A DNA stretch of 64,000 nt from Patescibacteria group bacterium (GTDB taxonomy: Bacteria; Patescibacteriota; JAHJAL01), in the NCBI GenBank assembly GCA_036794765.1, contig DAIRGB010000001.1, positions 11,752 to 75,751 on the forward strand, given 5' to 3'. A program made the position numbers and the translations under genes. This document shows positions 1-63,497 of this stretch, in pieces. The notes below the pieces were generated by a model that worked only from the letters and a program-made list of their open reading frames with translations, ran no database searches and was not told the origin of the DNA. How positions within the stretch are numbered: the stretch's first letter is position 1; each line of letters starts with the position of its first letter.

Positions 1-15
1 TGCAACCTGGCGGCA

Positions 16-978
16 ATGCACAATATCAATGTTTTGGATTACCCACGGGTTTCGGTGCCTAATCTGGAATTTGTGTCGGAGGTTTTGGATTGTTTTAATA
101 TTATTTATGATCGGATTGCAGATAAAATATCGACCGAAGATGGTTTAAAGCAGATACGTGAAAACTGGCTCGAGAAAGAATTGATCGATAATATTGAGAT
201 AAAGGGTCATAGTGAGTTTTTTAATATAAATAAAGAGGTGGCGCAGGGATTGGTAAAATCAGAATTATCTATCGATGACAATTTTCGACATCTTACGGTC
301 GTAAAAAAAGAGTTGGAACAGTTGAGGCAGCGTCAGTACCAGAAAATTGATCAGATTACTGCCTTGCAGTGGAAAAAAAGTTATTTGAATTATCTGACAA
401 ACAGCTGCTCGATATTGAAGATTGTAGCCAAGAAAGATTTGATTGAAAAGCAAAGAATGGAGGCAGAGAAATTTTTACCTGAATTAGAAAAAATTGAACA
501 ACTAGCTGAATCAGATTTGAATAAATTGGTTAAAGTTGAGAATAAAGGAAGTTTTTATTTTGTTGATAGTTTTCGGGAAATTGAAGAAAGTAAACGACGA
601 TTTGATGAACTTTTTGGTCAAGTTGAGGAAATCAGAAAAGGGATTGAGGAAGCGAAAAGTTGGCCATTTTATAAAAAAATATTTGAAAGAACACAGATAC
701 GACAGTTACGAGATCAGGAAAATATACTATTGGCCCAACTTGGAGTGGAAAAAATAGGTATCGAGAATGTGATGTATCTTGATCAGTTGATTAGAGAAAA
801 GTACGTTGATCTGGTTGAGATAATTGAAACAGCTGGTGGAGAAAAATATTTATTGAAGGAATATGCTTTGGGTGAATTGTTGAATGTGGTGCGGATTGAT
901 CTGAAAGCTAAATTGAGAGCTGATTTGACTGAAAATGAAAAAAAGAGGTATTTCGAATTTAAGTATTTATCTGAATAA
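16..978 (+). CDS. Hypothetical coiled-coil protein. Rich in E/K/L/Q heptad-like segments. May begin upstream of the window, because there is no in-frame stop before position 16.
   Basis: 320-aa ORF in the six-frame track. Charged helical composition. No motif I recognise. Confidence 0.45.
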   Translation: MHNINVLDYPRVSVPNLEFVSEVLDCFNIIYDRIADKISTEDGLKQIRENWLEKELIDNIEIKGHSEFFNINKEVAQGLVKSELSIDDNFRHLTVVKKELEQLRQRQYQKIDQITALQWKKSYLNYLTNSCSILKIVAKKDLIEKQRMEAEKFLPELEKIEQLAESDLNKLVKVENKGSFYFVDSFREIEESKRRFDELFGQVEEIRKGIEEAKSWPFYKKIFERTQIRQLRDQENILLAQLGVEKIGIENVMYLDQLIREKYVDLVEIIETAGGEKYLLKEYALGELLNVVRIDLKAKLRADLTENEKKRYFEFKYLSE

Positions 979-1164
979 AAAATATTGTGGTCTTTCAGGG
1001 GTGTGTTATAGTAGGGTTAAATTTGATTTAGATTTAAAGTAATGAGAATTAAAGCTTACATTTTACACATGAATTATCGCGGTTGCGTAAAACCGCATTT
1101 TGTCGTGGGCTTTTTCTCTAATAATTATCAGAATATTTCATAGGATACAAATAATTTTTAAAGA

Positions 1165-1197
1165 TAGAGCCCAGAGATTTACTTCTGGGCTTTTTTA
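1165..1197 (+). terminator. Rho-independent terminator-like hairpin followed by a T-run. It lies about 60 nt upstream of the ABC-F start, so it may be an attenuator.
   Basis: Stem GCCCAGA at 1169-1175 pairs with TCTGGGC at 1184-1190, with an 8-nt loop between them. TTTTTT follows at 1191-1196. Confidence 0.5.
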
Positions 1198-1259
1198 TGT
1201 AAGAGTTTGCTATATTCTACTAGGCTTTTCTATTTTTTAAACGAAAAAATGGAGTTGTT

Positions 1260-2732
1260 ATGTTACTTGTAAAAAATTTGACAAAATACATTAATCACCA
1301 ATTGCTTTGGGAAAATCTGAGTTTTACTCTGCACAAAAAAGACAAAGTGGGATTGATTGGTGCGAATGGGTGTGGAAAATCGACGTTGTTGAAAATAATT
1401 GTGGGATTGGAGAATTGTGATGAGGGTTCGGTTTTGGCGAAGGGGGAGAGAATTGGGTATTTGTCTCAGGAATTTTCAGAAAAGAAAGAAACGACGATAA
1501 GTGAATATTTGAATCTAGAAAATGATTATCGCGGTTATAAAGCTTTGTCGAAGGTAGGATTGGATGAAATTGATATGTACATGCCCGTTGGAAATCTGAG
1601 CGGTGGTCAGAAGACGCGATTGGTGTTGGCCAAGGTATTGATTGATCAACCGACTTTATTGTTGATGGATGAGCCAACCAATCATCTGGATGAGAGTGGA
1701 ATAAAGTGGTTGGAAAAATTTACACGGGATTTTCCCGGTATAGTATTGGTAGTGACTCATGATCGACAGTTTTTACAAGAGGCGGTAAATAAGATTGTAG
1801 AAATCGACAAAGCCAACAATCGAATAAACGAATATGTGGGAAACTATGAAGATTATTTGCGGGAGAGAGAGATAATGATGAAAAATTGGCAGGTCAGTTA
1901 TGAAAATCAAGAGAAGGAAAGAAAAAGATTGGAAAATTGGCTAGCTTTAAAAAGACAGGAAGCAAGTGTTTTTAAAGATCCGGCCAAAGGAAGACAGGTT
2001 AGACAGATGGAAAAAAGGATTGATAGAGAGATTTATCAGAACAAGATAGCTAAACCATTGGATTTGAAAACGGTGGCGGGGTTGTCTTTTAAAGGTAATA
2101 TATGGCGCGATAAATTGGTTTTAAGGTTAGAGGATTTGACAAAAAAATTTCGGGACAAAATAATTTTGAATGGAATAAACCTTGAAGTGCGAGGGCAAGA
2201 TAGAATATTGATTGGTGGTGACAATGGATCGGGAAAAACGACTTTGCTGAAAATTATCGTTAATGATTTGGCGCCGGATGATGGTTTGGTAAAGATTGGT
2301 GAGAATTTGCGATATTCATATTTTTCACAGGAGCTGAAAAATCTTGATGGTGAGCGAACGTTGTTGGACGAATTGTTGGTTTCCAGAACAGAAGATTATA
2401 TTGGTATTAGTCAGGCCAGATCGATATTGGGTTGTTTCCTGTTTTCCAAGGATGATATTTACAAAAAAGTTGAAGTATTGAGTTTTGGTGAGAAGGTTAG
2501 ATTGATTTTTGCCAAGATGATAAATCTAGAAAATCATTTATTGATATTGGATGAGCCGACTAATCATTTGGATATTCCGACCAGGGAAATTATCGAAAAA
2601 GCGTTAAATGATTATGAGGGTTCGTTGATTGTTGTCTCGCATGATCGTTATTTTGTGAAACAGATTGGATTGAATAAAAAGTATTTGTTGGAGGATGGTA
2701 AACTAAATTTAATACAGGAGCGAATCAGATGA
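1260..2732 (+). CDS. ABC-F family protein. It has two ABC ATPase domains and no transmembrane domain. The class resembles the EttA/Uup/antibiotic-resistance ABC-F proteins.
   Basis: Walker A motifs GANGCGKST and GDNGSGKTT. ABC signatures LSGGQKTRL and LSFGEKVRL. Walker B motifs LLLMDEPTNHLD and LILDEPTNHLD. An interdomain linker of about 80 aa rich in charged residues. GGAG ribosome-binding site 8 nt upstream. The stop overlaps the next start as ATGA. Confidence 0.85.
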   Translation: MLLVKNLTKYINHQLLWENLSFTLHKKDKVGLIGANGCGKSTLLKIIVGLENCDEGSVLAKGERIGYLSQEFSEKKETTISEYLNLENDYRGYKALSKVGLDEIDMYMPVGNLSGGQKTRLVLAKVLIDQPTLLLMDEPTNHLDESGIKWLEKFTRDFPGIVLVVTHDRQFLQEAVNKIVEIDKANNRINEYVGNYEDYLREREIMMKNWQVSYENQEKERKRLENWLALKRQEASVFKDPAKGRQVRQMEKRIDREIYQNKIAKPLDLKTVAGLSFKGNIWRDKLVLRLEDLTKKFRDKIILNGINLEVRGQDRILIGGDNGSGKTTLLKIIVNDLAPDDGLVKIGENLRYSYFSQELKNLDGERTLLDELLVSRTEDYIGISQARSILGCFLFSKDDIYKKVEVLSFGEKVRLIFAKMINLENHLLILDEPTNHLDIPTREIIEKALNDYEGSLIVVSHDRYFVKQIGLNKKYLLEDGKLNLIQERIR

Positions 2733-3715
2733 AAAATGTAATTGAAGTAACTAATTTGTGTAAATATTTTTCTATAAAACAAAAAGAGTTTGGGTTTTTG
2801 GGTGGGATAAAGTCGTTGTTTAGACCGAAATATAAAATGGTCGAAGCGGTAAACAATATTTCATTTGAGGTAAGAGAAGGTGAATTGTTGTCATTTATCG
2901 GTCCAAATGGGGCAGGGAAGTCAACAACAATAAAAATGCTGACAGGTATATTGTTTTCGACTGGTGGACGGATCGAGGTTTTAAATGTTGATCCGCAAAA
3001 ACAAAGACAAAAATTGGCTTTTAAAATCGGGTCGGTGTTTGGACAGAAGTCGCAGCTTTGGTATCATCTGCCACCGTTGGATACTTATAATTTGTATGCC
3101 AAAATATACGAATTGGATCAAAAGAAATATAAAGCAAGATTAGATTTTTTGGTGGAACAGTTTGAGATTGCTGATTTACTCAAAATACCGGTTAGAAAAC
3201 TGTCTTTGGGACAAAGGATGAGGTGCGAAATTGCTGCTTCGCTTTTGCATCAGCCTCGAATATTATTTTTGGATGAACCAACAATCGGTTTGGACGTGAT
3301 TGCTAAACAAAAAATTCGGGAAGTTATAAAGTTTTTGAATGAGAAAGAAAAAGTGACGATTTTTTTAACATCGCATGATGTCGGTGATATTGAGTCTTTA
3401 GCCAAAAGAACAATTATTGTCAATCACGGTCGAATTGTTTTTGATGACGAGACAAGAAGATTGAAGGAAAGATATGTAACGAAGAAGATTGTCGAATTGA
3501 TATTTGAGCAAAAAGCCAAAAAATTTGAATATCCTGCTGGGAAAGTAATTGAGAGAAAGGAAAATCGAGTTAAAGTGGAAATTGATTTGCAGGAGAAGGC
3601 GATTGATAAATTGCTGGGTTTTGCGGTTAAAAATTACGATATTATCGATATGAATGTTTATGATCGACCGATGGAGGAAATAATCGCGGATATCTATCGG
3701 CAGGAGGATTTATGA
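2729..3715 (+). CDS. ABC transporter ATP-binding protein of the ABC-2 exporter type. It resembles the COG4586-type ATPase with a C-terminal extension.
   Basis: Walker A GPNGAGKSTT. Signature LSLGQRMRCE. Walker B LFLDEPTIGLD. H-loop TSHD. ATGA overlaps with both neighbouring genes. Confidence 0.85.
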   Translation: MKNVIEVTNLCKYFSIKQKEFGFLGGIKSLFRPKYKMVEAVNNISFEVREGELLSFIGPNGAGKSTTIKMLTGILFSTGGRIEVLNVDPQKQRQKLAFKIGSVFGQKSQLWYHLPPLDTYNLYAKIYELDQKKYKARLDFLVEQFEIADLLKIPVRKLSLGQRMRCEIAASLLHQPRILFLDEPTIGLDVIAKQKIREVIKFLNEKEKVTIFLTSHDVGDIESLAKRTIIVNHGRIVFDDETRRLKERYVTKKIVELIFEQKAKKFEYPAGKVIERKENRVKVEIDLQEKAIDKLLGFAVKNYDIIDMNVYDRPMEEIIADIYRQEDL

Positions 3716-4542
3716 GAACCCGGGAGATGATAATAAATATCAATTGGAAGTTGACTAAATATTTTGAGATAGCTCGTTTGGCTTATGTTAATTCCGGGGC
3801 GTATTTGGCCAATATTTTGGGTAAAAGCCTGACAGTGGTTTTACGAATTTGGATTTTTACACAATTGTATCGAGTAACTTTTGCGGTTGCAGCTGTTGAT
3901 GTGGTGGGAGGTTTGACAGTAGCACAGGTGATTTGGAGTTTGATGTTGGTTCAAAGTTTTGAGACCTCAACCAAACCAATGATTTCCAAATTGATTGATG
4001 AAGAAATAAAATCTGGTTCTTTTGCTTATCAAGTTAATAAACCATATTCGTATATTTTTTATCATTTGGCCGGTTATTTCGGGAGGGTGGCGGCTAATGT
4101 TGGTTCAAATTTATTGATTGGATCGGTGGCGGCTTGGTTTTTAGTGGGAGCTATTGGTTCGAGTTGGTTGGGATTGTTTTTTGGTTTGTTGATTTTAGTA
4201 TTGGGATACGCTTTGGATTTTTTAATTTCATTGAGTATTGGTTTAGTTGCTTTTTGGTGGGAAGATTCAAATACAATTATGTGGATGTATTCTAAAGGCC
4301 GATTTTTATTGGGTGGTGTGATTTTGCCGATTGCTTTGTTTCCGGAGAAGATTCAGAAAATTGCTGAGTTGTTGCCTTTTGCCAATTTGTATTATGCGCC
4401 GGCGAGAATAATGGTAAATTTTGAGTGGAATTTGGTGGAAAAATTTGTGTTAGTTCAATTGGCGTGGATTATTTTTTTTATTATGATTGTTTCAATAATG
4501 TATAGTCGGGGAGTAAAAAATGTGGCAATTAATGGTGGTTAA
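3712..4542 (+). CDS. ABC-2 family transporter permease, designated subtype A.
   Basis: 276-aa protein with about 6 hydrophobic helices. Translationally coupled to the upstream ATPase. Confidence 0.65.
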   Translation: MRTREMIININWKLTKYFEIARLAYVNSGAYLANILGKSLTVVLRIWIFTQLYRVTFAVAAVDVVGGLTVAQVIWSLMLVQSFETSTKPMISKLIDEEIKSGSFAYQVNKPYSYIFYHLAGYFGRVAANVGSNLLIGSVAAWFLVGAIGSSWLGLFFGLLILVLGYALDFLISLSIGLVAFWWEDSNTIMWMYSKGRFLLGGVILPIALFPEKIQKIAELLPFANLYYAPARIMVNFEWNLVEKFVLVQLAWIIFFIMIVSIMYSRGVKNVAINGG

Positions 4543-5323
4543 AAAATATTTCGGTTTGATCTGGGAGGTGGTGAAAACCAATTTGATGACGGCGATGGAA
4601 TATCGGATGAGTTTTATCTTGCAGGTAATTGGTATGATGGCCAATGATTTGTTGATGATTGTTTTGTGGGTGATATTTTTTCAGCGGTTTGGCGAAATCA
4701 ATGGTTGGACTTTCCAAGACACGGTAATGTTGTGGTCGATTACGACGGTAAATTTTGCGATTGTTATGGTGATGTGTCGTGGGGTTTTTGAATTGGCAAA
4801 AACAATTACTCGTGGGGATTTGGATTATTATTTGTCATTTCCGGTGGATACTTTGTGGTATGTAGCGGTGAGCCAAATGTCGGTGCCGGCGGTAGGGGAT
4901 TTGTTTTTTGGGATTGTGTTGTATTTGTTGTATGGCGATTTGAGTCTTTCGGGTATTGCTTTGTATATTTTTTTGTGTGGGGTGACGGCTTGGATATTTT
5001 TTAATTTTGTTGTTTTGACACAATCAATTGCTTTTTTTGTGGGTAATTTTGAAGAAGCGGCGGAACAATGGTATCACTCGTTGCTGGGTTTTACTTTATA
5101 CCCACAATCGGTGTTTCATGGTGTTTTGAAAATGTTGATGTTTACTTTGGTACCGGCGTTTTTTATTGCAACTTTACCGGTGGATCTTATCAATCAGTTT
5201 TCTTGGGAAAAAATATTCTGGTTATTTGGTTTTGGTTTGATTACTTTTTTGATAGCAGTTGGATTATTTAGACGGGGATTGAAAAGATACGAGTCGGGAA
5301 ATTTGATTAGTTTCAAGATGTAA
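4520..5323 (+). CDS. ABC-2 family transporter permease, designated subtype B. It has an N-terminal KYFxxxW amphipathic segment and a C-terminal GLKRYESG motif.
   Basis: 267-aa protein with about 6 transmembrane segments. Overlaps the upstream gene by 23 nt. The same family recurs five times downstream. Confidence 0.65.
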   Translation: MWQLMVVKKYFGLIWEVVKTNLMTAMEYRMSFILQVIGMMANDLLMIVLWVIFFQRFGEINGWTFQDTVMLWSITTVNFAIVMVMCRGVFELAKTITRGDLDYYLSFPVDTLWYVAVSQMSVPAVGDLFFGIVLYLLYGDLSLSGIALYIFLCGVTAWIFFNFVVLTQSIAFFVGNFEEAAEQWYHSLLGFTLYPQSVFHGVLKMLMFTLVPAFFIATLPVDLINQFSWEKIFWLFGFGLITFLIAVGLFRRGLKRYESGNLISFKM

Positions 5324-5384
5324 TTTTTAGATTAAAAAATGATAGAATATAGTTAATTACTGATTGAATTGGTATTGATTTGAG

Positions 5385-5503
5385 TGAAATATTTTTATGT
5401 ATTATTTTTTCTTTTTTTAAGACTCGGGCAATACCTCTAATGAAAAGATTATTTATCTTAAACAAGTTAAAAAAAGAAAAAATAATACATAAAAATATTT
5501 CAC
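5385..5503. repeat. Copy 1 of a long palindromic element. It has perfect 37-nt inverted-repeat arms and a core of about 45 nt. It may be a structured ncRNA, a bidirectional terminator or a MITE-like element.
   Basis: The left arm GTGAAATATTTTTATGTATTATTTTTTCTTTTTTTAA is the exact reverse complement of the right arm ending at 5503. The core contains GACTC, CTAATGA and AACAAG, which are shared with copy 2 at 36824-36940. Confidence 0.55.
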
Positions 5504-5550
5504 CCAAGTTATTCTTTTGATAAAGTTTTTTATAAAAATAAATAAAAATT

Positions 5551-6528
5551 ATGTCGATTATAAAGGTTGAAAACTTGACCAAGGTTTTTGAATTGAATAA
5601 AAAGAAGGAAGGATTTTGGAATTCGGTTAAGGGACTTTTCAAGAGTGAAAAAACTTTGGTGAAGGCAGTAGACAAAGTGTCGTTTGAAATTGAGAAAGGA
5701 GAGTTGGTTGGTTTTTTGGGGCCAAATGGGGCAGGGAAGACCACAACTTTGAAAATGTTGGCGGGAATATTGTATCCGACTAGTGGTAGTGCCAAGATTT
5801 TAGGATATTATCCCTGGGATCATCAAAATGAGTTTAAGTCGCAGATTGCGATGGTGATGGGACAGAAGTCACAATTGTGGTGGGATTTGCCGGCGATGGA
5901 AACTTATTTACTCAATCAAGATATTTATGAAATTCCAGAAAAGACTTTTCGTAAAAATTTGAATTATCTGGCGGATATTTTGGATGTGGGGGAGTTTTTG
6001 GAGGTGCCAGTGCGGAAGTTGTCTTTGGGACAACGTATGAAATGTGAGTTGATTGCGGCTTTACTGCATGATCCGAAAGTGATATTTTTGGATGAGCCGA
6101 CGATCGGATTGGATGTGACTAGTCAAAAAGCGGTGCGAAGTTTTATCAAAGACTACAATCAAAAAAAGAAAGCGACGATTATTTTGACTAGTCACTACAT
6201 GGAAGATATTAAAGAATTGTGCAAGCGGGTGATTATTATCAATCAGGGACAGAAAATATATGATGATACTTATGCCGGATTGGTAAAAAAATATGCTCAA
6301 GAAAAACAGATTGAAATATTTTTTGAAAAACCGGTTTATAAAAGAGATTTTGTGGGATTGGGAAAATTGTTGGAGTTTTCCAACCAAAAAGTTTTATTAT
6401 CGGTTTCAAGAGACAAGGTGTCGGATGTGTTGGGTAAATTGGTCAAGAAATTTGCTATTGATGATATTGATGTTAAAGAGAAGCAAGCGGCGGATATTAT
6501 TGCCGAGATGTTTGCGGAGAATAAATAA
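5551..6528 (+). CDS. ABC transporter ATP-binding protein of the ABC-2 exporter type. It is a paralog of the gene at 2729-3715.
   Basis: Walker A GPNGAGKTTT. Signature LSLGQRMKCE. Walker B IFLDEPTIGLD. H-loop TSHY. Same length class as its paralog (325 aa). Confidence 0.85.
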   Translation: MSIIKVENLTKVFELNKKKEGFWNSVKGLFKSEKTLVKAVDKVSFEIEKGELVGFLGPNGAGKTTTLKMLAGILYPTSGSAKILGYYPWDHQNEFKSQIAMVMGQKSQLWWDLPAMETYLLNQDIYEIPEKTFRKNLNYLADILDVGEFLEVPVRKLSLGQRMKCELIAALLHDPKVIFLDEPTIGLDVTSQKAVRSFIKDYNQKKKATIILTSHYMEDIKELCKRVIIINQGQKIYDDTYAGLVKKYAQEKQIEIFFEKPVYKRDFVGLGKLLEFSNQKVLLSVSRDKVSDVLGKLVKKFAIDDIDVKEKQAADIIAEMFAENK

Positions 6529-32619: not shown

Positions 32620-32742
32620 ACAAACCCTTATAAACTCTTTAAAACTCTTTTAAACACTTAAAAACTATGGGAATTATGAGAGTGTTTATTGTAAAGTTTG
32701 TAAGAGTATATAAGGGTTTCTAAGTGTTTATAAGAGTTTTGT
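32620..32742. repeat. Imperfectly palindromic block of the 10-bp phased A-tract repeat family. It lies upstream of tRNA-Asp.
   Basis: AAACCCTTATAAACTCTTTAAAACTCTTTTAAACACTTAAAAACT is followed by the same word set in inverted orientation, GTTTATAAGAGTTTT etc. Confidence 0.5.
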
Positions 32743-35527: not shown

Positions 35528-36805
35528 ATGAAGATTGATTACAAATTGACGAAGTTGAAAAATGGGATGCGGGTGTTGTTGGTTCCAAATAAACATGTGG
35601 AGTCGGTGAATGTTTCGATTTTTTTCCGGGTTGGTTCTCGATGCGAGGATGAGAATATTGCCGGGATTTCGCATTTTTTGGAACATATGTTTTTTAAGGG
35701 AACCAAAAAAAGACCGAAGGCAAAATTTATTTCGGAGGCGATTGATAGTGTGGGTGGGGAGATGAATGCGTTTACGAGTTATGAGTATACCGGGTATTGG
35801 ATAAAAGTGGCCAAACAACATACTGATTTGGCGATTGATGTTTTGTCGGATATGATTATTGATTCCAAATTTTTGCAAAAGGAATTGGATCGGGAACGAA
35901 ATGTTATTAAAGAAGAAATGAAGATGTATGAGGATAATCCGGATTATTATATCTGGCGGGTGTGGAACAAGGTGTTGTATGGGGAGCAGGGGTTGGGACG
36001 GGAAATTGCCGGGACACGGGAGGCTTTGGACAATATTAATCATCCGGAGATGATTGAATATCGAAACAATTATTATTCGGTAGCCAATGGGTTGTTGGTA
36101 GTGGTGGGAAACTTTGTGGAAACTTCTTTGATGACGACTTTGAATAAATATTGGAATAAAGTCAGTAAGGGCATGAGATCGGAGTATCAATTGGCAAGTG
36201 ACTGTCAGCCAAAACCGCAGGTTGAATTGTTGACCAAAGATATTCAGCAGGCCAATATGTGCGTTGGAGTGAGGTCATATCGTTCTTTTCATCCTGATCA
36301 CTTTGTAGTCAATTTGATTTCGGTGATTTTGGGACGAGGGATGAGTTCACGATTATTTTTGCGGGTGCGAGAAAAACATGGGTTAGTTTATACGATTCGG
36401 GCCATGGCGGACAATTATGTCGATGTGGGAAATTTGGTTGTAAAAACCGGTTGTGATGCCAACAAAGCCGAACAGGCCTTGAAGATGATTTTGGAGGAGT
36501 TCAAAAAATTGACCAAGGAAAAAGTTTTGAAAAAAGAATTGGATAAAGCCAAAGAGTATTGGAAAGGGACTTTGATTTTGTCTTTGGAGGATTTGGAGAG
36601 TGTTGGTGGTATGGTAGGGATGCAGGAATTGTTGTTTGATAAAGTGGTTACTCCGGATCAGATGATCAAGGCGATTGATAAAGTGACGGCGGAAGATATT
36701 ATGAGAGTGGCAAAGGATATGTTTAAACCGGAAAAATTGAATCTGGCGGTGATCGGTCCTTTTAAAAATAGCAAGAAATTTCAGACGATTGTTTCTAATT
36801 TTTAG
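35528..36805 (+). CDS. M16 family (pitrilysin/insulinase-like) zinc peptidase.
   Basis: Inverted zinc motif HFLEHMFFKGT and downstream E residues. Two-domain M16 architecture. Confidence 0.8.
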   Translation: MKIDYKLTKLKNGMRVLLVPNKHVESVNVSIFFRVGSRCEDENIAGISHFLEHMFFKGTKKRPKAKFISEAIDSVGGEMNAFTSYEYTGYWIKVAKQHTDLAIDVLSDMIIDSKFLQKELDRERNVIKEEMKMYEDNPDYYIWRVWNKVLYGEQGLGREIAGTREALDNINHPEMIEYRNNYYSVANGLLVVVGNFVETSLMTTLNKYWNKVSKGMRSEYQLASDCQPKPQVELLTKDIQQANMCVGVRSYRSFHPDHFVVNLISVILGRGMSSRLFLRVREKHGLVYTIRAMADNYVDVGNLVVKTGCDANKAEQALKMILEEFKKLTKEKVLKKELDKAKEYWKGTLILSLEDLESVGGMVGMQELLFDKVVTPDQMIKAIDKVTAEDIMRVAKDMFKPEKLNLAVIGPFKNSKKFQTIVSNF

Positions 36806-36823: not shown

Positions 36824-36940
36824 GTGGAATATCCGTATAACTTTTTTTCTTTTTTTAAGACTCAGACATTTTTTCTAATGATTTTGACTATTGAACTCAA
36901 ACAAGTTAAAAAAAGAAAAAAAGTTATACGGATATTTCAC
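36824..36940. repeat. Copy 2 of the palindromic element, with 34-nt arms.
   Basis: GTGGAATATCCGTATAACTTTTTTTCTTTTTTTAA with its reverse complement at 36906-36940 (one mismatch). Core GACTCAGACA...CTAATGA...AACAAG. Confidence 0.55.
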
Positions 36941-36970: not shown

Positions 36971-37465
36971 ATGATTGAGCGAACTTTGGTGGCTTTGAAG
37001 CCGGATGCTGTGCAACGGGGTTTGATTGGTGAAGTGATTCATCGATTTGAACGAGCCGGTTTAAAAATTGTGGCAATGAAGATGAAGTGGGTGGATGAGG
37101 AATTTGCCAAAAAACATTATACTGAGGACATTTCGATTAGGAGAGGGGAACATGTTCGTCGTTATTTGGTGGAGTTTTTGTTGGTTGGACCGGTGGTGGC
37201 GATGGTTTTGGAGGGGGTGGATGCGATTGAAGTGGTGCGAAAGATGGTTGGTGGGACGGAACCAAAGATGGCGGTGCCGGGGACTATACGAGGTGATTTT
37301 TCGCATGTGAGTTATGACTATTGTGATTCCAAAGAAATGGTGGTAAAAAATATCATTCATGCTTCTTCGGATGCTAAAGACGCTAAACATGAGATTGATT
37401 TGTGGTTTGACAAGAGCGAGATTCATGATTACAAATCAGTTCATGATCAGCATATTTTTGATTGA
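36971..37465 (+). CDS. ndk: Nucleoside diphosphate kinase.
   Basis: ERTLVALKPDAVQRGLIGEVIHRFE. Active-site His context NIIHASSD. Confidence 0.85.
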   Translation: MIERTLVALKPDAVQRGLIGEVIHRFERAGLKIVAMKMKWVDEEFAKKHYTEDISIRRGEHVRRYLVEFLLVGPVVAMVLEGVDAIEVVRKMVGGTEPKMAVPGTIRGDFSHVSYDYCDSKEMVVKNIIHASSDAKDAKHEIDLWFDKSEIHDYKSVHDQHIFD

Positions 37466-55074: not shown

Positions 55075-55145
55075 TCCGGGATCGTCTAATGGTAGGACAG
55101 CGGCCTCTGAAGTCGTCAATCTTGGTTCGAATCCAAGTCCCGGAG
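55075..55145 (+). tRNA. tRNA-Gln with anticodon CTG.
   Basis: Acceptor stem TCCGGGA pairs with TCCCGGA. Anticodon loop CTCTGAA. T-arm CTTGGTTCGAATCCAAG. Discriminator G. Confidence 0.75.
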
Positions 55146-56726
55146 TTTTCCTGAACGAAGCATCTTGTGTGAATGGCTATTGACCATATTGGTGCTTGAT
55201 GTCACCTGTTCGAATTTGTTTTTGGTATTTTCGGATAAAATTTCTATATTCGAATTTCGGAGTATATTGGTTAGCTTGGCTAACATTTCAAATGGTTTAG
55301 ATAGCTTTACAGATAGAATTCCGTTTTCAATTTTCATTTCATCAAAGAGGACTTTAAGTAGTTCTCTTTTGTTGTCTGGTAATCCATTTTCAAATATTAT
55401 ATTTGCCTGTTGAGTCAATTCATAAATTGAAATGCCAAGCTCGTAATAAGCATTTTCTTTTCTGGTTAGTCTATCAATGGCTCTGGAAATGTCTTCTTTT
55501 TCTTTCGTGAATTTTTGGTTTAATTCTTTGTAAGTATTATCAGAAATAAGACCATCTAATTTGTCTATGTATAAAGTGTCTAGTCTTTGAGAAAGTTTAC
55601 TGTATTGGATGTGAAGTTGTTTGGCTGATGCCTCCCTAGTGACTATTTCTTCTTTGTGGTCTTCTTTTAATGACATTCTAATCCATTCATCAATTTTAGG
55701 ACTGGTTATTTTGAATCTATCGGTAATATCTGAGACTTGTTCTTCGATTTCGGCTTGTTTTGCCCATGTTTTTTGTTGGCAATTATTTTTGTGATTGCAG
55801 TGACCATATACTATCCCTTTTTGGATTTCCCAAGTAATGGTCCCATTGCATTCTTTGCAGGTCATTAATTTTTGGAAGACATAATGGTGTTTATTGTATT
55901 TTGGAGTTGTTTTGGAAGTAAGGTTTAGTTGGACTTTTTCAAATACTTCTTCTGTGACAATTGGCTCATGTTTTCCAGGATATATTTCATTTTTCCAAAG
56001 GATTTTTCCACTATAGAATGGTCTGGTAAGGATATTATGAAGCGTGCTTTTTGCCATTCTTTTACCTTTAATTGTTCTGAGTCCTTGTTTAAACATGATT
56101 TGACTTAGTTTCTTTAAAGAGTAATTTCCTGTCGCATACAGTTCAAATAACTGTTTGATTAGAGGTGCAATATTTTCATCAATAACTTGGATTTTGTGAC
56201 CTTTTTCTCCTATAGTCTTGTATCCCATTGGTGCTTTATTTGGTAGCCAGCCTTGAGATATTTTTTCTTTAAAACCTTTTTGCACTTCTTCGGACAAATT
56301 ATTGGTGTAAAATCGGGCAATGGCGACTTTCATGTCCCAAACTAGATTTTCGTGTGCTTTGGTATTTTTATTGAGAACAAAAGATTCTTTGACAAAATGG
56401 ACCTCGTGTTTGGGATTGCTTTGGACCCAGTCATTGATAATTGCTGCGTCTTTAAGGTTTCTGGTTAGTCTGTCTATCTTTTCGCATACTATAACTGAAA
56501 TTTGGTTTTGTTTTAGATATTTTAGCATTTCTTGAAAGGTGTCTCGGATTTTTTTGCCACTGGCTGATTCAGAAATACTGAATATTTTGTTTATTCGGAA
56601 TTTATTTTGAGAATAGTCTTTTAATAGTTTTTCTTGAGCTGGCAAGGAATAACCTGTTTCTTCTTGGTCCTTAGATGACACTCGGCAATATAAGACGGAT
56701 TTTGGCATATTGTTGATAGTTTTCAT
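55116..56726 (-). CDS. Large serine recombinase (phage-integrase type).
   Basis: Resolvase catalytic domain VLYCRVSSKDQ...VIVCEKIDRLTRN. Recombinase domain. Zinc ribbon CKECNGT...CNHKNNC. C-terminal coiled coil. The 3' end overlaps tRNA-Gln. Confidence 0.8.
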   Translation of the reverse strand: MKTINNMPKSVLYCRVSSKDQEETGYSLPAQEKLLKDYSQNKFRINKIFSISESASGKKIRDTFQEMLKYLKQNQISVIVCEKIDRLTRNLKDAAIINDWVQSNPKHEVHFVKESFVLNKNTKAHENLVWDMKVAIARFYTNNLSEEVQKGFKEKISQGWLPNKAPMGYKTIGEKGHKIQVIDENIAPLIKQLFELYATGNYSLKKLSQIMFKQGLRTIKGKRMAKSTLHNILTRPFYSGKILWKNEIYPGKHEPIVTEEVFEKVQLNLTSKTTPKYNKHHYVFQKLMTCKECNGTITWEIQKGIVYGHCNHKNNCQQKTWAKQAEIEEQVSDITDRFKITSPKIDEWIRMSLKEDHKEEIVTREASAKQLHIQYSKLSQRLDTLYIDKLDGLISDNTYKELNQKFTKEKEDISRAIDRLTRKENAYYELGISIYELTQQANIIFENGLPDNKRELLKVLFDEMKIENGILSVKLSKPFEMLAKLTNILRNSNIEILSENTKNKFEQVTSSTNMVNSHSHKMLRSGKLRDLDSNQD

Positions 56727-56743
56727 TTTAAATGCTCCTAGAA

Positions 56744-57127
56744 TTAATAAAATAAAGAATTATTGTATTTAGTATGTATTTTTATTTTTGGATATTTTTT
56801 AAGGCAATTATTCAATATATGGGTGTCATAGCGGTTGCGTGTTAATCGAGATATATCTGAGCATAGCAGATGATTAATATTTAATTTATTCATTGTTTGG
56901 AATAATTCTGGAATTATTTTATCTTTTGGCAAGCCTGTAAATTTTAAAGAAGAGACAATTTGAAATTTTTGACCTAAATAATCAATTAAATTCTTTTCTT
57001 GAAGGGATAGTTTTTGTAGATTATCATTTTGTTTATGACAGGCGGAAAACGAGAAACAAATTGCTTGGTTATTCATAATGGTGTTTATTAGATAAATAAA
57101 AAAGGGGCAACCTACCTTGTTGCCCAA
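56744..57127 (-). pseudogene. Degenerate or truncated serine recombinase N-terminal domain fragment.
   Basis: 127-aa ORF with LLCSDISRLTRN, which matches the resolvase DRLxR motif. It lacks the RVS-type catalytic Ser context. Confidence 0.35.
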
Positions 57128-57341
57128 TCAATTAAACCACTAGAAGAGGATTAATTGTGGAAGTAGATTGCCCCGTTTTTGTCCACAAAGAACATAAAAG
57201 ACGAGTTCTCTTCCATGGTTTAATTAATTGATTGAGCAACACTTATATTGTATCAAGTAAAATGCAGGTGATACAATGTTGTTGTGATTCGAGTGTGGCA
57301 AAATTTCTTATCTATAATAGAACGAAATTTTTGCGACACTC

Positions 57342-58352
57342 TTATTTGTGTTCAGGCGCAGGATATTCTTCTGTAAATCGAGGGTGAGTATAGTCTAGTT
57401 CTGGGTAGAGGCAGTTTTTTTCTCCTCTGGTTTCGATAATAATTTTTTCGGAGATTAACTCCTTGTAGGCAGTATTGAAGGTTTTTTCTCCAATATCATA
57501 TCCGTATTCTTTGATTTTGCCGTAAAGTTGGGTTTTGTTCATTTTTTCAGTGTTTTTCTGGAGAATTTCGACGATTGCATTTTTAGAATCAATTTTTTTG
57601 CTGGTCTTGATTTCGTTGTAGCCAGCAAATTCAAAGTCTAGAAAATCCTCATTATTTTTTATTAGCAGTTTGAAACTATTAAGCTCTTGCTGTTGTCTGA
57701 GTTTAGTTTGTTCAATCTCTAAACTGTCTTCGACTTTCGTTACAGCCAAGTGACAATCTATGGATGCTAGAATATCGGATGAACCTCGCATGTTTTGGGA
57801 GTTGGAGGATTTATTGTGCATATTCTGTTTGCGATGGTGGTGGGTCACTATAACAGTGATACCATGTTTCGTCATTTTCTTTAGATAAGCAAATACCTCG
57901 GCCATCTTTTTTGCATCGTTTTCATCGGCGTTGTGTATTCTTACCAATGAATCGAAGATGACTACTTTGTAATCGTTTTCCAAACAATACTCGATTAAGG
58001 TTTGGCATACATTTTCTATTTTTATACCAAGTATTGAAGTGACGGATATTGGTAGTTCAGGGGATGTCTGTAGTTTGACGAATCTATCATGGAGCAGTCT
58101 TTCACCATTTTCTTCGTCTATAATTAGGATTTTGGATTGTGCGGTGCGAAATTGTCCAAAGACAATGTCTCCAATTGCTATTTTTTTGGCCATGTATAAG
58201 AATAGCCATGTTTTAAAACAACTCGGTTGGCCGGAGATAACTGTAATGCCATTAGTTGGTATTAGGTATTCTACAACCCAATTTAATGGTGGGAATTCCT
58301 TGGTTAATAGCTCTTTTAATGGAATAACGTGCTTGCTAAAAATGTTTGTCAT
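57342..58352 (-). CDS. RecA-fold ATPase (RepA/AAA_25-like) with a C-terminal winged-helix domain. It is a candidate replication protein of the element.
   Basis: Deviant Walker A SGQPSCFKT. Walker B KVVIFDSLVRIH. Conserved TVIVTHHHRK. Confidence 0.5.
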   Translation of the reverse strand: MTNIFSKHVIPLKELLTKEFPPLNWVVEYLIPTNGITVISGQPSCFKTWLFLYMAKKIAIGDIVFGQFRTAQSKILIIDEENGERLLHDRFVKLQTSPELPISVTSILGIKIENVCQTLIEYCLENDYKVVIFDSLVRIHNADENDAKKMAEVFAYLKKMTKHGITVIVTHHHRKQNMHNKSSNSQNMRGSSDILASIDCHLAVTKVEDSLEIEQTKLRQQQELNSFKLLIKNNEDFLDFEFAGYNEIKTSKKIDSKNAIVEILQKNTEKMNKTQLYGKIKEYGYDIGEKTFNTAYKELISEKIIIETRGEKNCLYPELDYTHPRFTEEYPAPEHK

Positions 58353-58766
58353 GATAACTCCTATAATTAAAATAAAATATTAGATATTTGGATACATTGA
58401 CGATTATTTAGGGAGGTCCTTTGCATCGATGGTCTTTTGTTTGTTGGTTATACATATTGAGTAAAATGCTTGAAGTTTTTATTAAAAAATCGGCAAGAAT
58501 TTTTGTATCTTCCAATGATAGCTTTTGGTTGTATTCTTCTTCTATGATTTTTTGGAGATTGAGAATGGTTTGTTCGGAGAGCATTTTTTTGCAATAAAAA
58601 ATAATACTAGCCTAAAGACTAGACTAGTATCAAAATCTAAGGAATTTAATTCGTGAAAACTCTAGAAAGTTCCAGAAATTTCCATCTTTTTTAATTTTTT
58701 CAACCATAAAAAAACTCTCATTTGTAATATCGAATGAGAGTAGTTATCTAGTTTTTTCTAATTTTT

Positions 58767-59339
58767 TTACACTTGTATAATTTCTGCTTTATTATTTTTT
58801 TCCATTATTGATATTTTTAGCGGAATTTTTGCTGATATAGCTCGTGTTAAATTTTTTAAACCTTTAATGATTGATTTGTCATCTTCAGTTTTATGGTTGT
58901 CTAAAAAAGCATTTTTTACATATTGTTTCATTTTGTCTAAGTGAAAATGGAATTTATATGGTCTTGAAGCTGTTTTTGATTGATTGTAAATATATTCTAA
59001 TATTATTGAGTTGATTTCTTTATAAGGTCTATACTCTGTTTTTGAAAACTTTATACTATTTTTGTATATTATTACGTTTTCTTTTTTGTTGGATTTATTT
59101 GATTTGCCTGAATTTGTAAGTGGTTTGAATATTACATAGTTTTCCGTAAGTTTTTTTATATGTATTTTGTTAATGTTTTGAAGATAATCGATAATTTTAC
59201 GTTGTGTTCCTCTAGTCATGATAATATTGTCTCCTCCATCTGATAAGGTGATGAAGTTATAAGTAACATATCCCTCTTTGTTTGGTAATAATTCATTGAT
59301 TATTTTATTTACTACATTGAGTTCCCATTTAGTTATCAT
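58767..59339 (-). CDS. Hypothetical protein belonging to the element.
   Basis: 190-aa ORF. K/N-rich. Confidence 0.4.
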   Translation of the reverse strand: MITKWELNVVNKIINELLPNKEGYVTYNFITLSDGGDNIIMTRGTQRKIIDYLQNINKIHIKKLTENYVIFKPLTNSGKSNKSNKKENVIIYKNSIKFSKTEYRPYKEINSIILEYIYNQSKTASRPYKFHFHLDKMKQYVKNAFLDNHKTEDDKSIIKGLKNLTRAISAKIPLKISIMEKNNKAEIIQV

Positions 59340-59402
59340 ATTGGTTTAAAAATTATTATTGCTTTATTTATTAATTATGTTCTGATACGGTCAAAGTAAT
59401 AG

Positions 59403-59987
59403 ATGTCTAATAATTATTATATGAGAAAAAGTATTTATAACAAAAAAGTAGTGATGGCTTATCTGAACGAAGATTTTGATTTATTTGGAGAATATCTGGA
59501 AAAAAGGGACCCAGTGGCTTTGGTCCTTGATGCAATAGAGAAGGGTAATTTTAATCGAGATGCGGCAAGACTAGCCAATATATCAGAATCTGAGTTTTAT
59601 CTTTGGCAACAGGAGAAAATTTCTTTAAATAAAGTTAATCCATACTATAAATTGGAATTTTCGGAGTCGGTTTCCAGGGCTAAAGCAAGAAGAATCAATT
59701 TTCATTTGACTAAAATAAGAGAAGCGAGTGATAAAGATTGGCGAGCCAGTGCTTGGATGTTGGAAAAGATAGAACCAAAAATATATGGTAAAAATACGCA
59801 AATTGGTTTTAACTTTCAACCTCCTCGTATTACAATTGCTACTCAGGAAATTCCAGAGAGGACTGAAGAACAAAAGGAAAAAGATAAAGTGTATGCATCT
59901 GGTTCTGAGGATGTCCAAAAATTTAAAGAAGTAATGGAGGAAATTAAGAGAGATTTGGAAGAAAAGGAGAATCAGGATTATTCCTAA
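59403..59987 (+). CDS. Hypothetical protein with an N-terminal HTH-like segment. It could be a terminase small subunit or a regulator.
   Basis: RDAARLANISESEFYLWQ helix-turn-helix-like. Charged C-terminus. Confidence 0.4.
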   Translation: MSNNYYMRKSIYNKKVVMAYLNEDFDLFGEYLEKRDPVALVLDAIEKGNFNRDAARLANISESEFYLWQQEKISLNKVNPYYKLEFSESVSRAKARRINFHLTKIREASDKDWRASAWMLEKIEPKIYGKNTQIGFNFQPPRITIATQEIPERTEEQKEKDKVYASGSEDVQKFKEVMEEIKRDLEEKENQDYS

Positions 59988-60253
59988 GTGGTGAAATATT
60001 TGATAAATTTTGCTAATATAAAGCCGTAAGTAACAATTCAAGTGCCTAAACTTTGTATTTTATACAAGGCATGGCAGTAAAAACTCAGATACATAAAGAT
60101 GGTCCTTTTGACCAGCTTACTTGTATCTGAGTATATATCCGAAAGGATATATGGTGGACCCGAAAGGGAAAGCCGAGCTGTGTTGGAAGGACCGTTTTTG
60201 GAATGATTTCAACATAGCAGAATAATTTTCTGTTTATTTTTTAAATATATGGT

Positions 60254-60865
60254 GTGACTATGAAAAATTTCTTCAACAAATACACGATTATTGTCGGTGC
60301 TATTTGCTTGGTAGTTGGTTTTTCTTTTGGGGCGGGCGGTTATTATCTGCTTTTGCCTTACAGAACACTAAAAATTACTTCCAATGTTCCAATTCCTGGA
60401 TTGGATTTGATGACGGATACGGCAAAAGAGATATCAAATATTGTTAAACCCGTAGTAGAGAAGAAAATAGGTGAGGATTTTATGTTGGATGATAATATCA
60501 AAGTCACTTACAAATGGACCAAGGAAGAAACAAATCGACTAAGTGACGAAAATAGTTATTTTGGCTATGACCCAAAAGAAGGAATGAAATGGGTAATTTT
60601 GGCTTTTGATGCCGAGAATATTGGAAAAAAAGCTGTAAGTTTAGATATAAACAAAAATAAAGATTTTGTATTATTTGATGAAAATGACAGAGAATATGAG
60701 TCTGATTATGGATATTCTCTTGATAATTATCTTTTTAATTATCAGCTTGTTCCTGCGTTGAAATCTGAAAAAATAGTTGTCTTTTCTGTTCCCAAAGATA
60801 CAAACAAATTCAAATACATTATCTACCATGGAAAGAATGAAGATTATAAATTGATTTTGGGATAA
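60254..60865 (+). CDS. Exported protein with an N-terminal transmembrane or signal anchor and a beta-rich domain (DUF4352-like).
   Basis: Hydrophobic N-terminus IIVGAICLVVGFSFGAGG. Beta-strand-rich remainder. Confidence 0.45.
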   Translation: MTMKNFFNKYTIIVGAICLVVGFSFGAGGYYLLLPYRTLKITSNVPIPGLDLMTDTAKEISNIVKPVVEKKIGEDFMLDDNIKVTYKWTKEETNRLSDENSYFGYDPKEGMKWVILAFDAENIGKKAVSLDINKNKDFVLFDENDREYESDYGYSLDNYLFNYQLVPALKSEKIVVFSVPKDTNKFKYIIYHGKNEDYKLILG

Positions 60866-60880
60866 TACTAAGCAAACACT

Positions 60881-61324
60881 ATGAAAAAATGTCGTTATTG
60901 CATGGAAGAAGTTCAAGATGAAGCAATTAAGTGCAAATATTGTCAAAAAAGCTTATTACCTGAAGGTGTGGCAATTACTGTAATTTCCGATAATGAAAAA
61001 CAAATTGCACGAAGTATTGCAGATTATCTTACTATATCAGGTATTGTTTGGCTTATTATTGGAGCCTTACAAATTGTCGGATTAGTTACTATTATTGCAG
61101 GTATTTGGAATATTATTGTGGCAATATCTCGGTTAAATGCTTCAACTAGGGTATCGAATTTCGATAAAAATATACCAAGGCAATTTGAGAGTATGAGCGG
61201 ATTGATTATTGTTTTGATAGTTAATCTATTCTTGGGCGGAATAATAGGAGTAATTGTCGTTATTTTTGACTTTATTATTCGAGATAAGATTTTATCCAAT
61301 CGTCATATTTTTGAAAGAGATTAA
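60881..61324 (+). CDS. Zinc-ribbon membrane protein.
   Basis: CRYC...CKYC ribbon followed by two or three transmembrane helices. Confidence 0.5.
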   Translation: MKKCRYCMEEVQDEAIKCKYCQKSLLPEGVAITVISDNEKQIARSIADYLTISGIVWLIIGALQIVGLVTIIAGIWNIIVAISRLNASTRVSNFDKNIPRQFESMSGLIIVLIVNLFLGGIIGVIVVIFDFIIRDKILSNRHIFERD

Positions 61325-61332
61325 ATATTTTT

Positions 61333-61626
61333 ATGGATAAATGTCCATTTTGTGCTGAACAAATACAATCAGGTGCTATTTATTGTCATCACTGTAAATC
61401 AGATTTAAAAAAACCTGAGGAAAGAAAAGTATATCGGGATATACAACAGAATAATTCTAATAATTCCTGTTTATGGATAGGTGGAGGAGGATGTTGTTGC
61501 TTATTAGTCGTAATTATTTCAGTATTTATGTTTATGTTCTTTCTGAATGGAATATTTTTAATGGGTAATGCAGCAGTAAAAAATTCAAATCAAACATCTG
61601 TTACAACTATTACACCCAACCCATAA
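61333..61626 (+). CDS. Zinc-ribbon membrane protein, a paralog of the upstream gene.
   Basis: CPFC...CHHC ribbon followed by a Gly/Cys-rich transmembrane helix. Confidence 0.5.
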   Translation: MDKCPFCAEQIQSGAIYCHHCKSDLKKPEERKVYRDIQQNNSNNSCLWIGGGGCCCLLVVIISVFMFMFFLNGIFLMGNAAVKNSNQTSVTTITPNP

Positions 61627-63486: not shown

Positions 63487-63497
63487 TTGGAAAAACT

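Follow-up and report, generated by a model that had tools for sequence, protein, structure and literature searches.

Patescibacteria have very small genomes, and to our knowledge few repeats have been described in them. Among the palindromic intergenic repeats known from elsewhere, the ERIC elements (enterobacterial repetitive intergenic consensus; also IRU) are reportedly ancient and often located at orthologous positions, as Wilson and Sharp are said to have concluded in 2006. They are imperfect palindromes of ~127 bp in transcribed intergenic regions, with a long stem formed by the 5' and 3' ends, and they are co-transcribed with their neighbours, with an orientation-dependent effect on mRNA stability (PMC2229807). 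The Correia elements of Neisseria (CREE or NEMIS) carry repeats of ~24-26 bp, are associated with a TA target duplication, and are present in >100 copies per genome (PMC2229807); their transcribed stem is a substrate of RNase III, which alters the fate of the mRNA (PMC2649163). REPINs, which consist of paired repetitive extragenic palindromic (REP) sequences, have conserved ends and a variable but compensated interior (PMC3116915). Mutational processes may also shape palindromes, because template switching at quasipalindromes, which was formulated in the Ripley model and documented with the Escherichia coli reporters of the Lovett laboratory, renders the arms "perfect or more perfect" (PMC7202029). 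Here, we describe a family of long, almost perfectly paired palindromes that is represented by two copies, elements A and B, in a stretch of 64,000 nucleotides (nt) from a Patescibacteria group bacterium (contig DAIRGB010000001.1 of assembly GCA_036794765.1, positions 11,752 to 75,751; hereafter the window).

Both intervals contain a copy of the same element; the copies are homologous, real, and not a product of chance. Each consists of two long, complementary arms that enclose an asymmetric core:

5380 to 5507, + strand: element A, whole palindrome with its 4-nt outer extension (41-nt inverted repeat, 98% complementary)
5380 to 5420, no strand assigned: left arm of element A, TTGA followed by GTGAAATATTTTTATGTATTATTTTTTCTTTTTTTAA (inverted-repeat analysis)
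5421 to 5466, + strand: asymmetric core of element A, 46 nt, GACTCGGGCAATACCTCTAATGAAAAGATTATTTATCTTAAACAAG (read from the sequence)
5467 to 5507, no strand assigned: right arm of element A (inverted-repeat analysis)
36824 to 36940, + strand: element B, whole palindrome (35-nt inverted repeat, 97% complementary)
36824 to 36858, no strand assigned: left arm of element B, 35 nt, GTGGAATATCCGTATAACTTTTTTTCTTTTTTTAA (inverted-repeat analysis)
36859 to 36905, + strand: asymmetric core of element B, 47 nt (read from the sequence)
36906 to 36940, no strand assigned: right arm of element B (inverted-repeat analysis)

The initial annotation, which was made from the sequence alone, had recognized both palindromes and their homology, and most of its anatomical details hold. 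For element A, arm length and perfect pairing were correct, but the start at 5385 was one base off; the perfect arms of 37 nt each occupy 5384-5420 and 5467-5503, and the inverted repeat extends to 41 nt (5380-5420 and 5467-5507) if a single A.C pair, formed by the A at 5383 and the C at 5504, is included. For element B, the interval was correct, but the arms comprise 35 nt and not 34 nt, and the mismatch reported for them is a single G.T pair (G36827 opposite T36937). The cores of both copies contain GACTC, CTAATGA, and AAACAAG, in agreement with the shared blocks (the last given as AACAAG) listed previously, and the inner arm segment T6-7 C T7 AA is common to both, with one T less in element A. 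Both ends of the arms had been described as shared; the right end, ATATTTCAC, is indeed identical in A and B, whereas the left end reads GTGAAATAT in A and GTGGAATAT in B. The middle segments of the arms differ between the copies (TTTTATGTATTA vs. CCGTATAAC), and each is mirrored within its own right arm, exactly as it had been read.

Across the family, the elements comprise 112-120 bp, with an A/T-rich stem of 33-41 bp that is almost purely Watson-Crick paired and an asymmetric core of 46-47 nt. The junctions at the top of the stem, TTTTTTAA followed by GACTC on the left and A(A/G)ACA(A/G)G followed by TTAAAAAA on the right, are kept in all five intact copies, and the foot of the stem, GT(G/A)(A/G)AAT ... 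ATT(Y)(Y)AC, is conserved as well.

Several lines of evidence support the reality of the elements. The z-scores of their folds range from -9.5 to -11 for RNA on either strand and from about -10 to -11 for DNA, and none of 200 shuffled sequences is as stable. Element A folds with -44.9 kcal/mol as RNA (z -10.8) and -33.4 kcal/mol as DNA (z -11.2), and element B with -45.6 kcal/mol as RNA (z -10.9). Within the window, the 22-nt junction patterns are found at two places only, A and B, compared to 0.01-0.04 expected occurrences. Nor are the arms simply A/T homopolymers that match each other, because the complex arm segments CCGTATAAC/GTTATACGG and ATGTATTA/TAATACAT pair perfectly. Two independent ENA assemblies hold both elements base for base (L006 for A, L001 for B), and the Logan k=31 unitigs L002-L005 begin at the equivalent of window position 36907, as predicted by the G.T pair at 36937. 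The unitigs break at precisely the points at which a perfect inverted repeat is predicted to interrupt a k=31 de Bruijn graph, and the elements are not an assembly artefact.

The behaviour of the unitigs is of some use in itself. Where an inverted repeat is perfect over at least 31 nt, the unitig ends locate it to the base (L002-L005, L096-L098, L121, L125-L130, and L132), and unitigs pass through copies with a bulge or mismatch (L125). The ends of Logan k=31 unitigs can therefore serve as an accurate, if indirect, detector of perfect inverted repeats.

The relatives of the source organism that were reached through homologs of the flanking proteins cover a wide range of distances. A strain from SRR133068xx (L096, L126) is almost identical to the window left of element A, whereas the genome JBMORM (GCA_049322675.1; L124, L131) is 66.5% identical to the window at 4-fold sites. 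The permease of a further lineage (L121) is 84% identical to that of the window, and in the genome JAEAMF (GCA_016294905.1; L087, L093), identity at 4-fold sites is 46-54%, which is near saturation; three more relatives (L091, L092, L122) are more distant. On the sequences compared, the family is specific to one clade of uncultured Patescibacteria (Candidate Phyla Radiation, CPR), in which it occupies at least three loci and is vertically inherited. The two copies initially annotated are thus joined by a third locus and by many orthologs.

Locus A, which is located between two ABC-2 transporter modules, is occupied in five lineages (window, SRR133068xx, JBMORM, L121, and JAEAMF). The stem of the SRR133068xx strain is perfect over 41 bp (L096 + L126), and the full element of JBMORM (L124:8633-8751), whose core is homologous, contains one bulge and two T.T mismatches. 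In the L121 lineage, where the left arm is seen, the same terminus is combined with a new middle segment (GCGCCGC); the unitig stops after exactly 30 nt of the arm, from which a repeat that is perfect over 31 nt or more can be deduced. The copy of JAEAMF (L093:10852-10964) is decayed; its termini are conserved, but the interior is diverged and poorly paired.

Locus B, between the genes of an M16 peptidase and ndk, is present in three lineages but empty in three more distant ones (L091, L092, L122), which have a spacer of 11-17 nt without the element. In JBMORM (L131:9861-9972), the stem is perfect over 33 bp, and its changes are mirrored. The copy of JAEAMF (L087:9917-9972) is reduced to 56 nt, with the core and the inner part of the right arm lost; it folds much better as + strand RNA (-27.3 vs. 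-13.2 kcal/mol). Locus C lies upstream of the gene for an ABC-F ATPase (1260-2732 in the window). The element of JBMORM at this locus (L124:4373-4486) is perfect over 34 bp and ends with AAATATTCTAC followed by TAGGCC at the position of a short remnant in the window:

1212 to 1220, + strand: locus C footprint ATATTCTAC, the right-terminal 9 nt of the element (aligned to L124:4373-4486)

The window and the SRR133068xx strain keep only ATATTCTAC at locus C, between flanks that are ~95% identical to those of JBMORM. In JAEAMF (L093), a remnant of core and right arm has survived (covariance-model score 49.6 bits), which indicates that the site was ancestrally occupied and that the state of the window is a deletion footprint; the element is therefore dispensable at least at this locus. 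The alternative that the window harbours a virgin target site, which already holds the right terminus and from which the left terminus of the element was templated, is ruled out by the remnant in JAEAMF.

Two copies and one footprint are found in the 64-kb window, and three copies in ~37 kb of JBMORM. The core of element A is 85% identical to those of JBMORM at loci A and C (L124-A and L124-C), 80% identical to that at locus B (L131-B), and 70% identical to that of element B, whose core is the most diverged of the family (64-72% identity to the remaining cores). The cores of JBMORM at loci B and C are 91% identical to each other. Modes of decay include independent mutation of the arms, internal deletion, arm deletion, and near-complete deletion.

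Each locus retains its own middle-arm sequence across genomes, which indicates that the copies are orthologous and do not result from repeated insertions. Since they have kept their positions during a divergence of synonymous sites that amounts to a third for JBMORM and to saturation for JAEAMF, the perfection of the arms is not due to youth. Instead, the two arms of each copy have changed in lock-step. In an alignment of the left arms and the reverse complements of the right arms of the five intact copies, 20 of the 37 columns are invariant and 17 are variable, and the arms disagree in 4 of 185 cells; transversions as well as indels of one and two bases are among the mirrored changes. A structure-guided alignment of the same copies has 98.7% of its cells paired, and 13 of 32 stem pairs have changed on both sides, compared to 4.9 +/- 1.6 in shuffled alignments (0 of 500 reach 13) and 0-2 in slid controls. 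Not a single pair varies on one side only, and G.U pairs are found in 1 of 159 cells. RNAalifold independently recovers this helix alone, with 14 compensated pairs and no conserved substructure in the core. Because the sequences are related by descent, the shuffle control overstates the significance, and the slid controls and the counts between orthologs are the better guides.

At locus B, the arms of the orthologs have diverged by 30%, compared to 33.5% at 4-fold sites, and 10 of the 10-11 arm differences are mirrored, in contrast to ~3 positional overlaps expected under independence. In two series of compensatory changes, an intermediate state was observed. The fourth pair of the 41-bp stem of element A reads G-C in both L121 and JBMORM but A.C in the window, and the SRR133068xx strain has A-T, a state that was predicted from the unitig break and then confirmed on the downstream unitig. 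In the second series, at pair 4 of the arm alignment, element A has A-T, element B of the window G.T, and its JBMORM ortholog (L131) G-C. By contrast, the arms of the JAEAMF copies are only 76-81% complementary, and G.T pairs have accumulated.

The arms thus covary, as the initial annotation had claimed for two copies, and the orthologs and the third locus strengthen this claim. Its conclusion that the covariation is a classic signature of selection for a base-paired structure, however, does not follow, because one-sided changes are absent, G.U pairs are exceedingly rare, indels are mirrored, and the arms at locus B diverge at about the neutral rate. An argument for + strand RNA based on three G.U pairs of the L087 derivative was withdrawn, because L093 shows the opposite and because the G/T mutation bias produces such pairs anyway.

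A separate observation concerns the comparison of the SRR133068xx strain with the window around element A. The two differ at 4 positions in 1-4686 and show a divergent patch with 45 differences at 4687-5231; they are identical again from 5232 over the parts of the palindrome that are covered (5232-5409 and 5467-5503), and divergence restarts at 5504. This pattern is a recombination mosaic with a junction at the edge of element A. The single A.C pair of the window (5383/5504) coincides with this junction, and 5504 is the first base beyond the perfect arm.

The genomic context of both copies is as initially described. Element A is located between the genes of an ABC-2 permease (4520-5323) and a second ABC ATPase (5551-6528), 56 nt past the stop codon of the former and 43 nt ahead of the ATG of the latter. 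Element B is located between the genes of the M16 peptidase (35528-36805) and ndk (36971-37465), 18 nt past the stop codon and 30 nt ahead of the ATG. All copies share one orientation, which is that of the co-directional genes flanking them, and their stems end 28-48 nt before the start codons. A terminator scan found no terminator-like site and no U-tract beside A or B on either strand, and a promoter scan found no conserved promoter-like site at either copy. Canonical intrinsic terminators, with a GC-containing stem and a T-run, are present elsewhere (window 1166-1193; L124 4321-4348), and the one in L124 sits 24 nt upstream of the locus C element.

The elements do not match any family of Rfam 15 at the gathering threshold. 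Permissive scans yielded only models of plant and animal microRNA precursors, with 30-47 bits compared to thresholds of 74-180, which is what a generic long hairpin would produce; the proposal of a structured noncoding RNA therefore finds no support among known families. The window is bacterial and of patescibacterial origin, and the Rfam scan located a class A RNase P RNA in it. A coding function was rejected, because reading frames are not conserved between the copies; differences in arm length and in the length of T-runs shift the frame. The gene for RNase III (rnc) is not within the 64-kb window. A role of GANTC methylation was considered, because the core starts with GACTC, but nothing ties it to the methylases of the window and it remains speculation; GANTC is mildly under-represented in the window (135 observed vs. 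180 expected). The loop of the Caulobacter CIR element likewise starts with GACTC (PMC2229807).

Two further features of the surroundings may be mentioned here. The entire window has a marked strand asymmetry, with 24.3% G and 11.2% C on the + strand (GC skew ~0.37), and nearly all genes are encoded on this strand. The ABC-F gene is preceded by a 281-nt leader (979-1259) with terminator-like hairpins at 1079-1096 and 1166-1193 that are conserved in JBMORM and JAEAMF. The leader recalls the attenuators by which ABC-F resistance genes are controlled.

Our favoured reading, to which we give an about even chance, is that the family consists of vertically inherited palindromic DNA elements of the REPIN/ERIC/Correia type, whose arms are kept Watson-Crick paired by arm-to-arm templating and which are probably co-transcribed as hairpins. 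The lack of one-sided and G.U variation, the exactly mirrored indels, and the almost neutral drift of the stem all suggest that one DNA arm serves as the template of the other. In an A/U-rich stem encoded on a strand with 24% G and 11% C, G.U pairs should build up freely, and they do so only in JAEAMF. Independent mutation combined with selection cannot plausibly give exactly mirrored indels, or neutral drift with almost no mismatches. One arm would be copied from the other within a DNA hairpin, either by intramolecular template switching at the quasipalindrome during replication or by repair of heteroduplex mismatches in an extruded hairpin, and such templating would give rise to covariation without any selection on RNA. 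A lineage-specific selection or partner factor would be present in the lineages of the window and JBMORM but missing from that of JAEAMF.

The same reading has a transcriptional side, in which the elements would be transcribed as long perfect hairpins in intercistronic or leader RNA. Hairpins in transcripts are expected from the uniform orientation of the elements in co-directional gene arrays and from the short distance between their stems and the start codons. Transcripts of loci A and B would be polycistronic and include the element, folded into a duplex of 33-41 bp; by analogy with the transcribed stems of Correia and ERIC elements, its effect would most likely be on the processing or stability of the flanking messages, e.g., through cleavage by RNase III.

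Several points weigh against arm-to-arm templating and its transcriptional corollary. The statistics derive from five intact sequences of two genomes, plus partial arms from two more, and the strand signal of the G.U pairs is contradictory (+ in L087, - in L093) and confounded by the strong GC skew. Since a canonical terminator precedes the element at locus C, transcription of this copy would require read-through. Template switching has been documented mainly for short quasipalindromes, whereas the spacer is 46 nt long in this case. As a general mutational process, it should also have kept the copies of JAEAMF perfect, which it did not, so that a lineage-specific factor or selection is needed in addition. 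Moreover, the conservation of the stem foot, the core junctions, and the orientation of the core suggests a sequence-specific recognition that templating does not account for.

This recognition could be explained by an undescribed, lineage-specific CPR protein other than a recognizable transposase, which would bind the hairpin via the stem foot and the core junctions and enforce its symmetry by arm copying; its loss would explain the decay of all three copies in JAEAMF. We regard such a protein as rather improbable. If it exists, the family would represent a "domesticated replicator" in the manner of REPINs, but of a new type and in an ultra-small genome. In an equally tentative variant based on double-stranded RNA, a perfect RNA duplex of 35-41 bp would be required as a precursor.

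Searches for further copies were limited by the composition of the scanned collections, which contain neither the source genome nor that of JBMORM. The exact core-junction pattern has no match in IMG/VR, the GTDB representatives, or the JGI metagenomes. A pattern of the arms alone retrieved 20 metagenome stretches, of which one is genuine (a contig of JAEAMF) and 19 are chance matches in coding DNA without a partner arm. The refined consensus retrieved nothing from viral contigs, and BLAST against phages and plasmids gave only a chance match of 38 nt to a Lactobacillus plasmid. When ~1.47 Mb of CPR loci were searched with nhmmer and with a covariance model derived from the five intact copies, only members of the clade and a single outside match were returned. 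This match, in a Falkowbacteria metagenome-assembled genome (MAG; L068 5706-5830, - strand, 38 bits), is an unrelated, GC-containing hairpin with a perfect 19-bp stem and a loop of ~45 nt just after a terminator-like site, which was matched on shape only.

The search for a mobilizing enzyme was negative as well: no transposase, including those of the Y1/HUH type, was found in scans of 30 open reading frames of the window, among the Pfam labels of the relatives' orthologs, or in the fetched flanks. A large serine recombinase (55116-56726, - strand) in a tRNA-linked island is the window's only recombinase. It abuts a tRNA gene (55075-55145) and is followed by an AAA_25 protein; the island (55075-63500) also encodes a DUF4352 protein and an N6/N4 DNA methylase, as well as a LOOT RNA (RF03000, 60043-60160, 72.7 bits), and it resembles an integrated mobile element with the LOOT RNA as cargo. 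Neither a target-site duplication nor a flanking TA is present at any of the five intact copies; a pair ATTTTC/ATATTC at locus C overlaps the arm itself. No insertion polymorphism was found between close relatives, and the sole polymorphism between close genomes is the loss at locus C. A 706-aa charged, coiled-coil-like protein without similarity to entries in Pfam, NCBIfam, or PDB is encoded just upstream of locus C (window 16-978, L124 2013-4133, L096 2069-4189). It is present in the window, the SRR133068xx strain, and JBMORM, which have pristine elements, and absent from JAEAMF, where they are degenerate; it was considered as a partner of the elements on this single correlation.

These observations also bear on other explanations of the family. 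An origin of the perfect arms in the recent transposition of an active, cut-and-paste MITE (miniature inverted-repeat transposable element) from a master copy, with terminal inverted repeats bound by a transposase, would agree with the inverted-repeat architecture and MITE-like size of the elements, with the absence of locus B from more distant relatives, and with the occurrence of homologous cores at several loci, including the closely similar B and C cores of JBMORM. However, every occupied locus is orthologous across synonymous divergences from 33% to saturation and has an arm sequence of its own, so the arms are not young. Further copies are lacking in the 1.47 Mb of CPR loci, the GTDB representatives, the JGI metagenomes, IMG/VR, phages, and plasmids; target-site duplications, flanking TA, and a transposase are missing; and the sole recent polymorphism is a deletion. 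For the copies seen, an active MITE is largely refuted, and we consider this explanation very unlikely. Of the mobile palindrome proposed initially, the presence and absence of the element at greater phylogenetic depth stands, whereas a target-site duplication, a transposase in the window, a non-orthologous site, and a recent insertion were not found. Long-term vertical persistence would agree with a REPIN-like, single-stranded DNA hairpin that is maintained or occasionally copied by a protein encoded elsewhere, i.e., a RAYT (Y1 HUH) or another hairpin-binding protein that recognizes the foot and the core and was lost in JAEAMF. The arms start with GT(G/A)(A/G), and one copy reads GTAG...CTAC, which recalls the REP tetranucleotide (PMC8266576); the lack of target-site duplications, the conserved motifs and orientation of the core, and the degeneration of all three copies in JAEAMF, in contrast to the pristine copies of the window and JBMORM, would fit as well. 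Nevertheless, this explanation is quite unlikely. Neither the 64-kb window nor the flanks that were fetched yielded a transposase, Y1/HUH or other; the tetranucleotide varies and is just a piece of the stem; sub-hairpins like those of REP sequences are missing from the arms; and only three loci are known, at which REPIN-like polymorphisms of excision or insertion were not seen.

The most serious competitor is a structured cis-regulatory RNA or small RNA, in which the hairpin is the functional unit (a processing site, stabilizer, or protein platform), its pairing is under ordinary selection, and the stem foot and stem-top junctions are recognition sites. The strong covariation, the uniform orientation in short co-directional spacers with stems that end shortly before start codons, and the junction motifs kept in all intact copies are what such an RNA should show, and even the core-deleted ortholog at locus B has kept a stem that folds much better as + strand RNA. 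Selection on RNA pairing, however, should tolerate one-sided changes and G.U pairs, particularly in an A/U-rich stem with a G/T mutation bias, and it explains neither the mirrored indels nor the about neutral divergence of the arms at locus B. The strand signal conflicts between copies, a conserved substructure is missing from the core, no Rfam family matches the element, and locus C lies behind a terminator; moreover, the element is dispensable, as it was deleted at locus C of the window and has decayed in JAEAMF. We therefore regard a structured RNA as unlikely, albeit with an appreciable residual probability. Almost no credence can be given to a long, possibly bidirectional terminator or attenuator between the flanking genes, as proposed initially. 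Although the intergenic hairpins are very stable, they lack a U-tract on either strand, and the scan finds nothing at A or B; a loop of 46 nt on an A/U stem of 35-41 bp is unlike intrinsic terminators, and the canonical terminators of the organism have GC-containing stems with a T-run, including the one immediately upstream of the locus C element.

The covariation of the arms, which no shuffled alignment could match, most likely does not result from selection on RNA and thus represents a trap for RNA discovery. The combination of absent one-sided and G.U variation, mirrored indels, and an approximately neutral stem is diagnostic and could be used to flag homogenization of DNA palindromes in screens for noncoding RNA. 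The occupation of orthologous sites through synonymous saturation indicates that palindromic elements can persist vertically in minimal genomes, and the contrast between pristine and decayed lineages provides a handle for finding a maintenance factor.

Some further observations concern other parts of the window. A second, unrelated hairpin cluster is located between a rotamase gene and a tRNA gene (32622-32740); it consists of two overlapping inverted-repeat pairs with 25-nt arms (AAACCCTTATAAACTCTTTAAAACT...), and a related hairpin is found at the orthologous place in JAEAMF (L087 7084-7150). The permease gene upstream of element A (4520-5323) is 78.5% identical to its homolog in L093 at 4-fold sites, compared to 46-54% for its neighbours, but the amino-acid identity is no higher (86%), which suggests either an odd dN/dS ratio or an exchange of gene segments between lineages. 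The M16 peptidase is closest to homologs in MAGs of Patescibacteria, with only ~45% identity. The best homologs of ndk (36971-37465) outside the clade are ~70% identical and are labelled Nanoarchaeota or Woesearchaeota by their sources, which could reflect a transfer between CPR and DPANN or mis-binning.

Among the known families of palindromic repeats, REPINs, Correia elements, and ERIC elements come closest. With REPINs, the elements share a long hairpin of ~100 nt, two inverted halves around a spacer, conserved ends with a variable but compensated interior (PMC3116915), an intergenic location without target-site duplication, and a long vertical persistence at orthologous sites. The start of the arms, GT(G/A)(A/G), is also near the REP tetranucleotide GTAG (PMC8266576). 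Unlike REPINs, however, the arms begin with GTGA, GTGG, or GTAG and not with a fixed GTAG, and these bases are paired and mirrored. The arms have no REP sub-hairpin, and the folds show one continuous helix; the spacer is a conserved, asymmetric core of 46 nt; three loci are known, as opposed to tens to hundreds for REPINs; and no RAYT was found among the proteins of the window that were scanned. Also the host, an A/T-rich CPR bacterium, is different.

Correia elements have inverted repeats around a directional, conserved core in a total of 100-155 bp, are often located 5' of genes at positions that are mostly conserved between strains, and form internal deletion variants, all of which is reminiscent of the present family. 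By contrast, the arms of the latter are longer (33-41 bp) and essentially perfect, and they are present in few known copies without a duplication. ERIC elements resemble the family in their size, their long stem, and their intergenic location. Their stems, however, are imperfect, with many mismatches, and their contiguous terminal repeats comprise 7 bp and are flanked by TA; they have no sequence similarity to the family in Patescibacteria. Quasipalindrome hotspots share the mirrored substitutions and indels with the arms of the family, but they represent a mutational process and not a family of elements, are documented on short stems with short loops, and leave the conserved core, its orientation, and the lineage-specific decay unexplained. 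The attC sites of integrons, which are defined by R''/L''...L'/R' boxes (RYYYAAC/GTTRRRY), extrahelical bases, and a cassette context with an integrase, differ in that the stems of the family are perfect, without extrahelical bases, and have the termini GTGAAAT/ATTTCAC; the flanking genes are syntenic housekeeping genes, and the only recombinase in the window is the serine recombinase of the tRNA-linked island. Classical MITEs, which are mobilized by DDE transposases (e.g., Correia and RUP), are similar in having terminal inverted repeats, which comprise 33-41 nt in this case and have the conserved foot GT(G/A)(A/G)AAT. No description of such an element in Patescibacteria was found, and a literature search for MITEs in Patescibacteria yielded nothing relevant. 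The family is not a member of the REPIN, Correia, or ERIC families and is best filed as a new variant of palindromic intergenic repeats.

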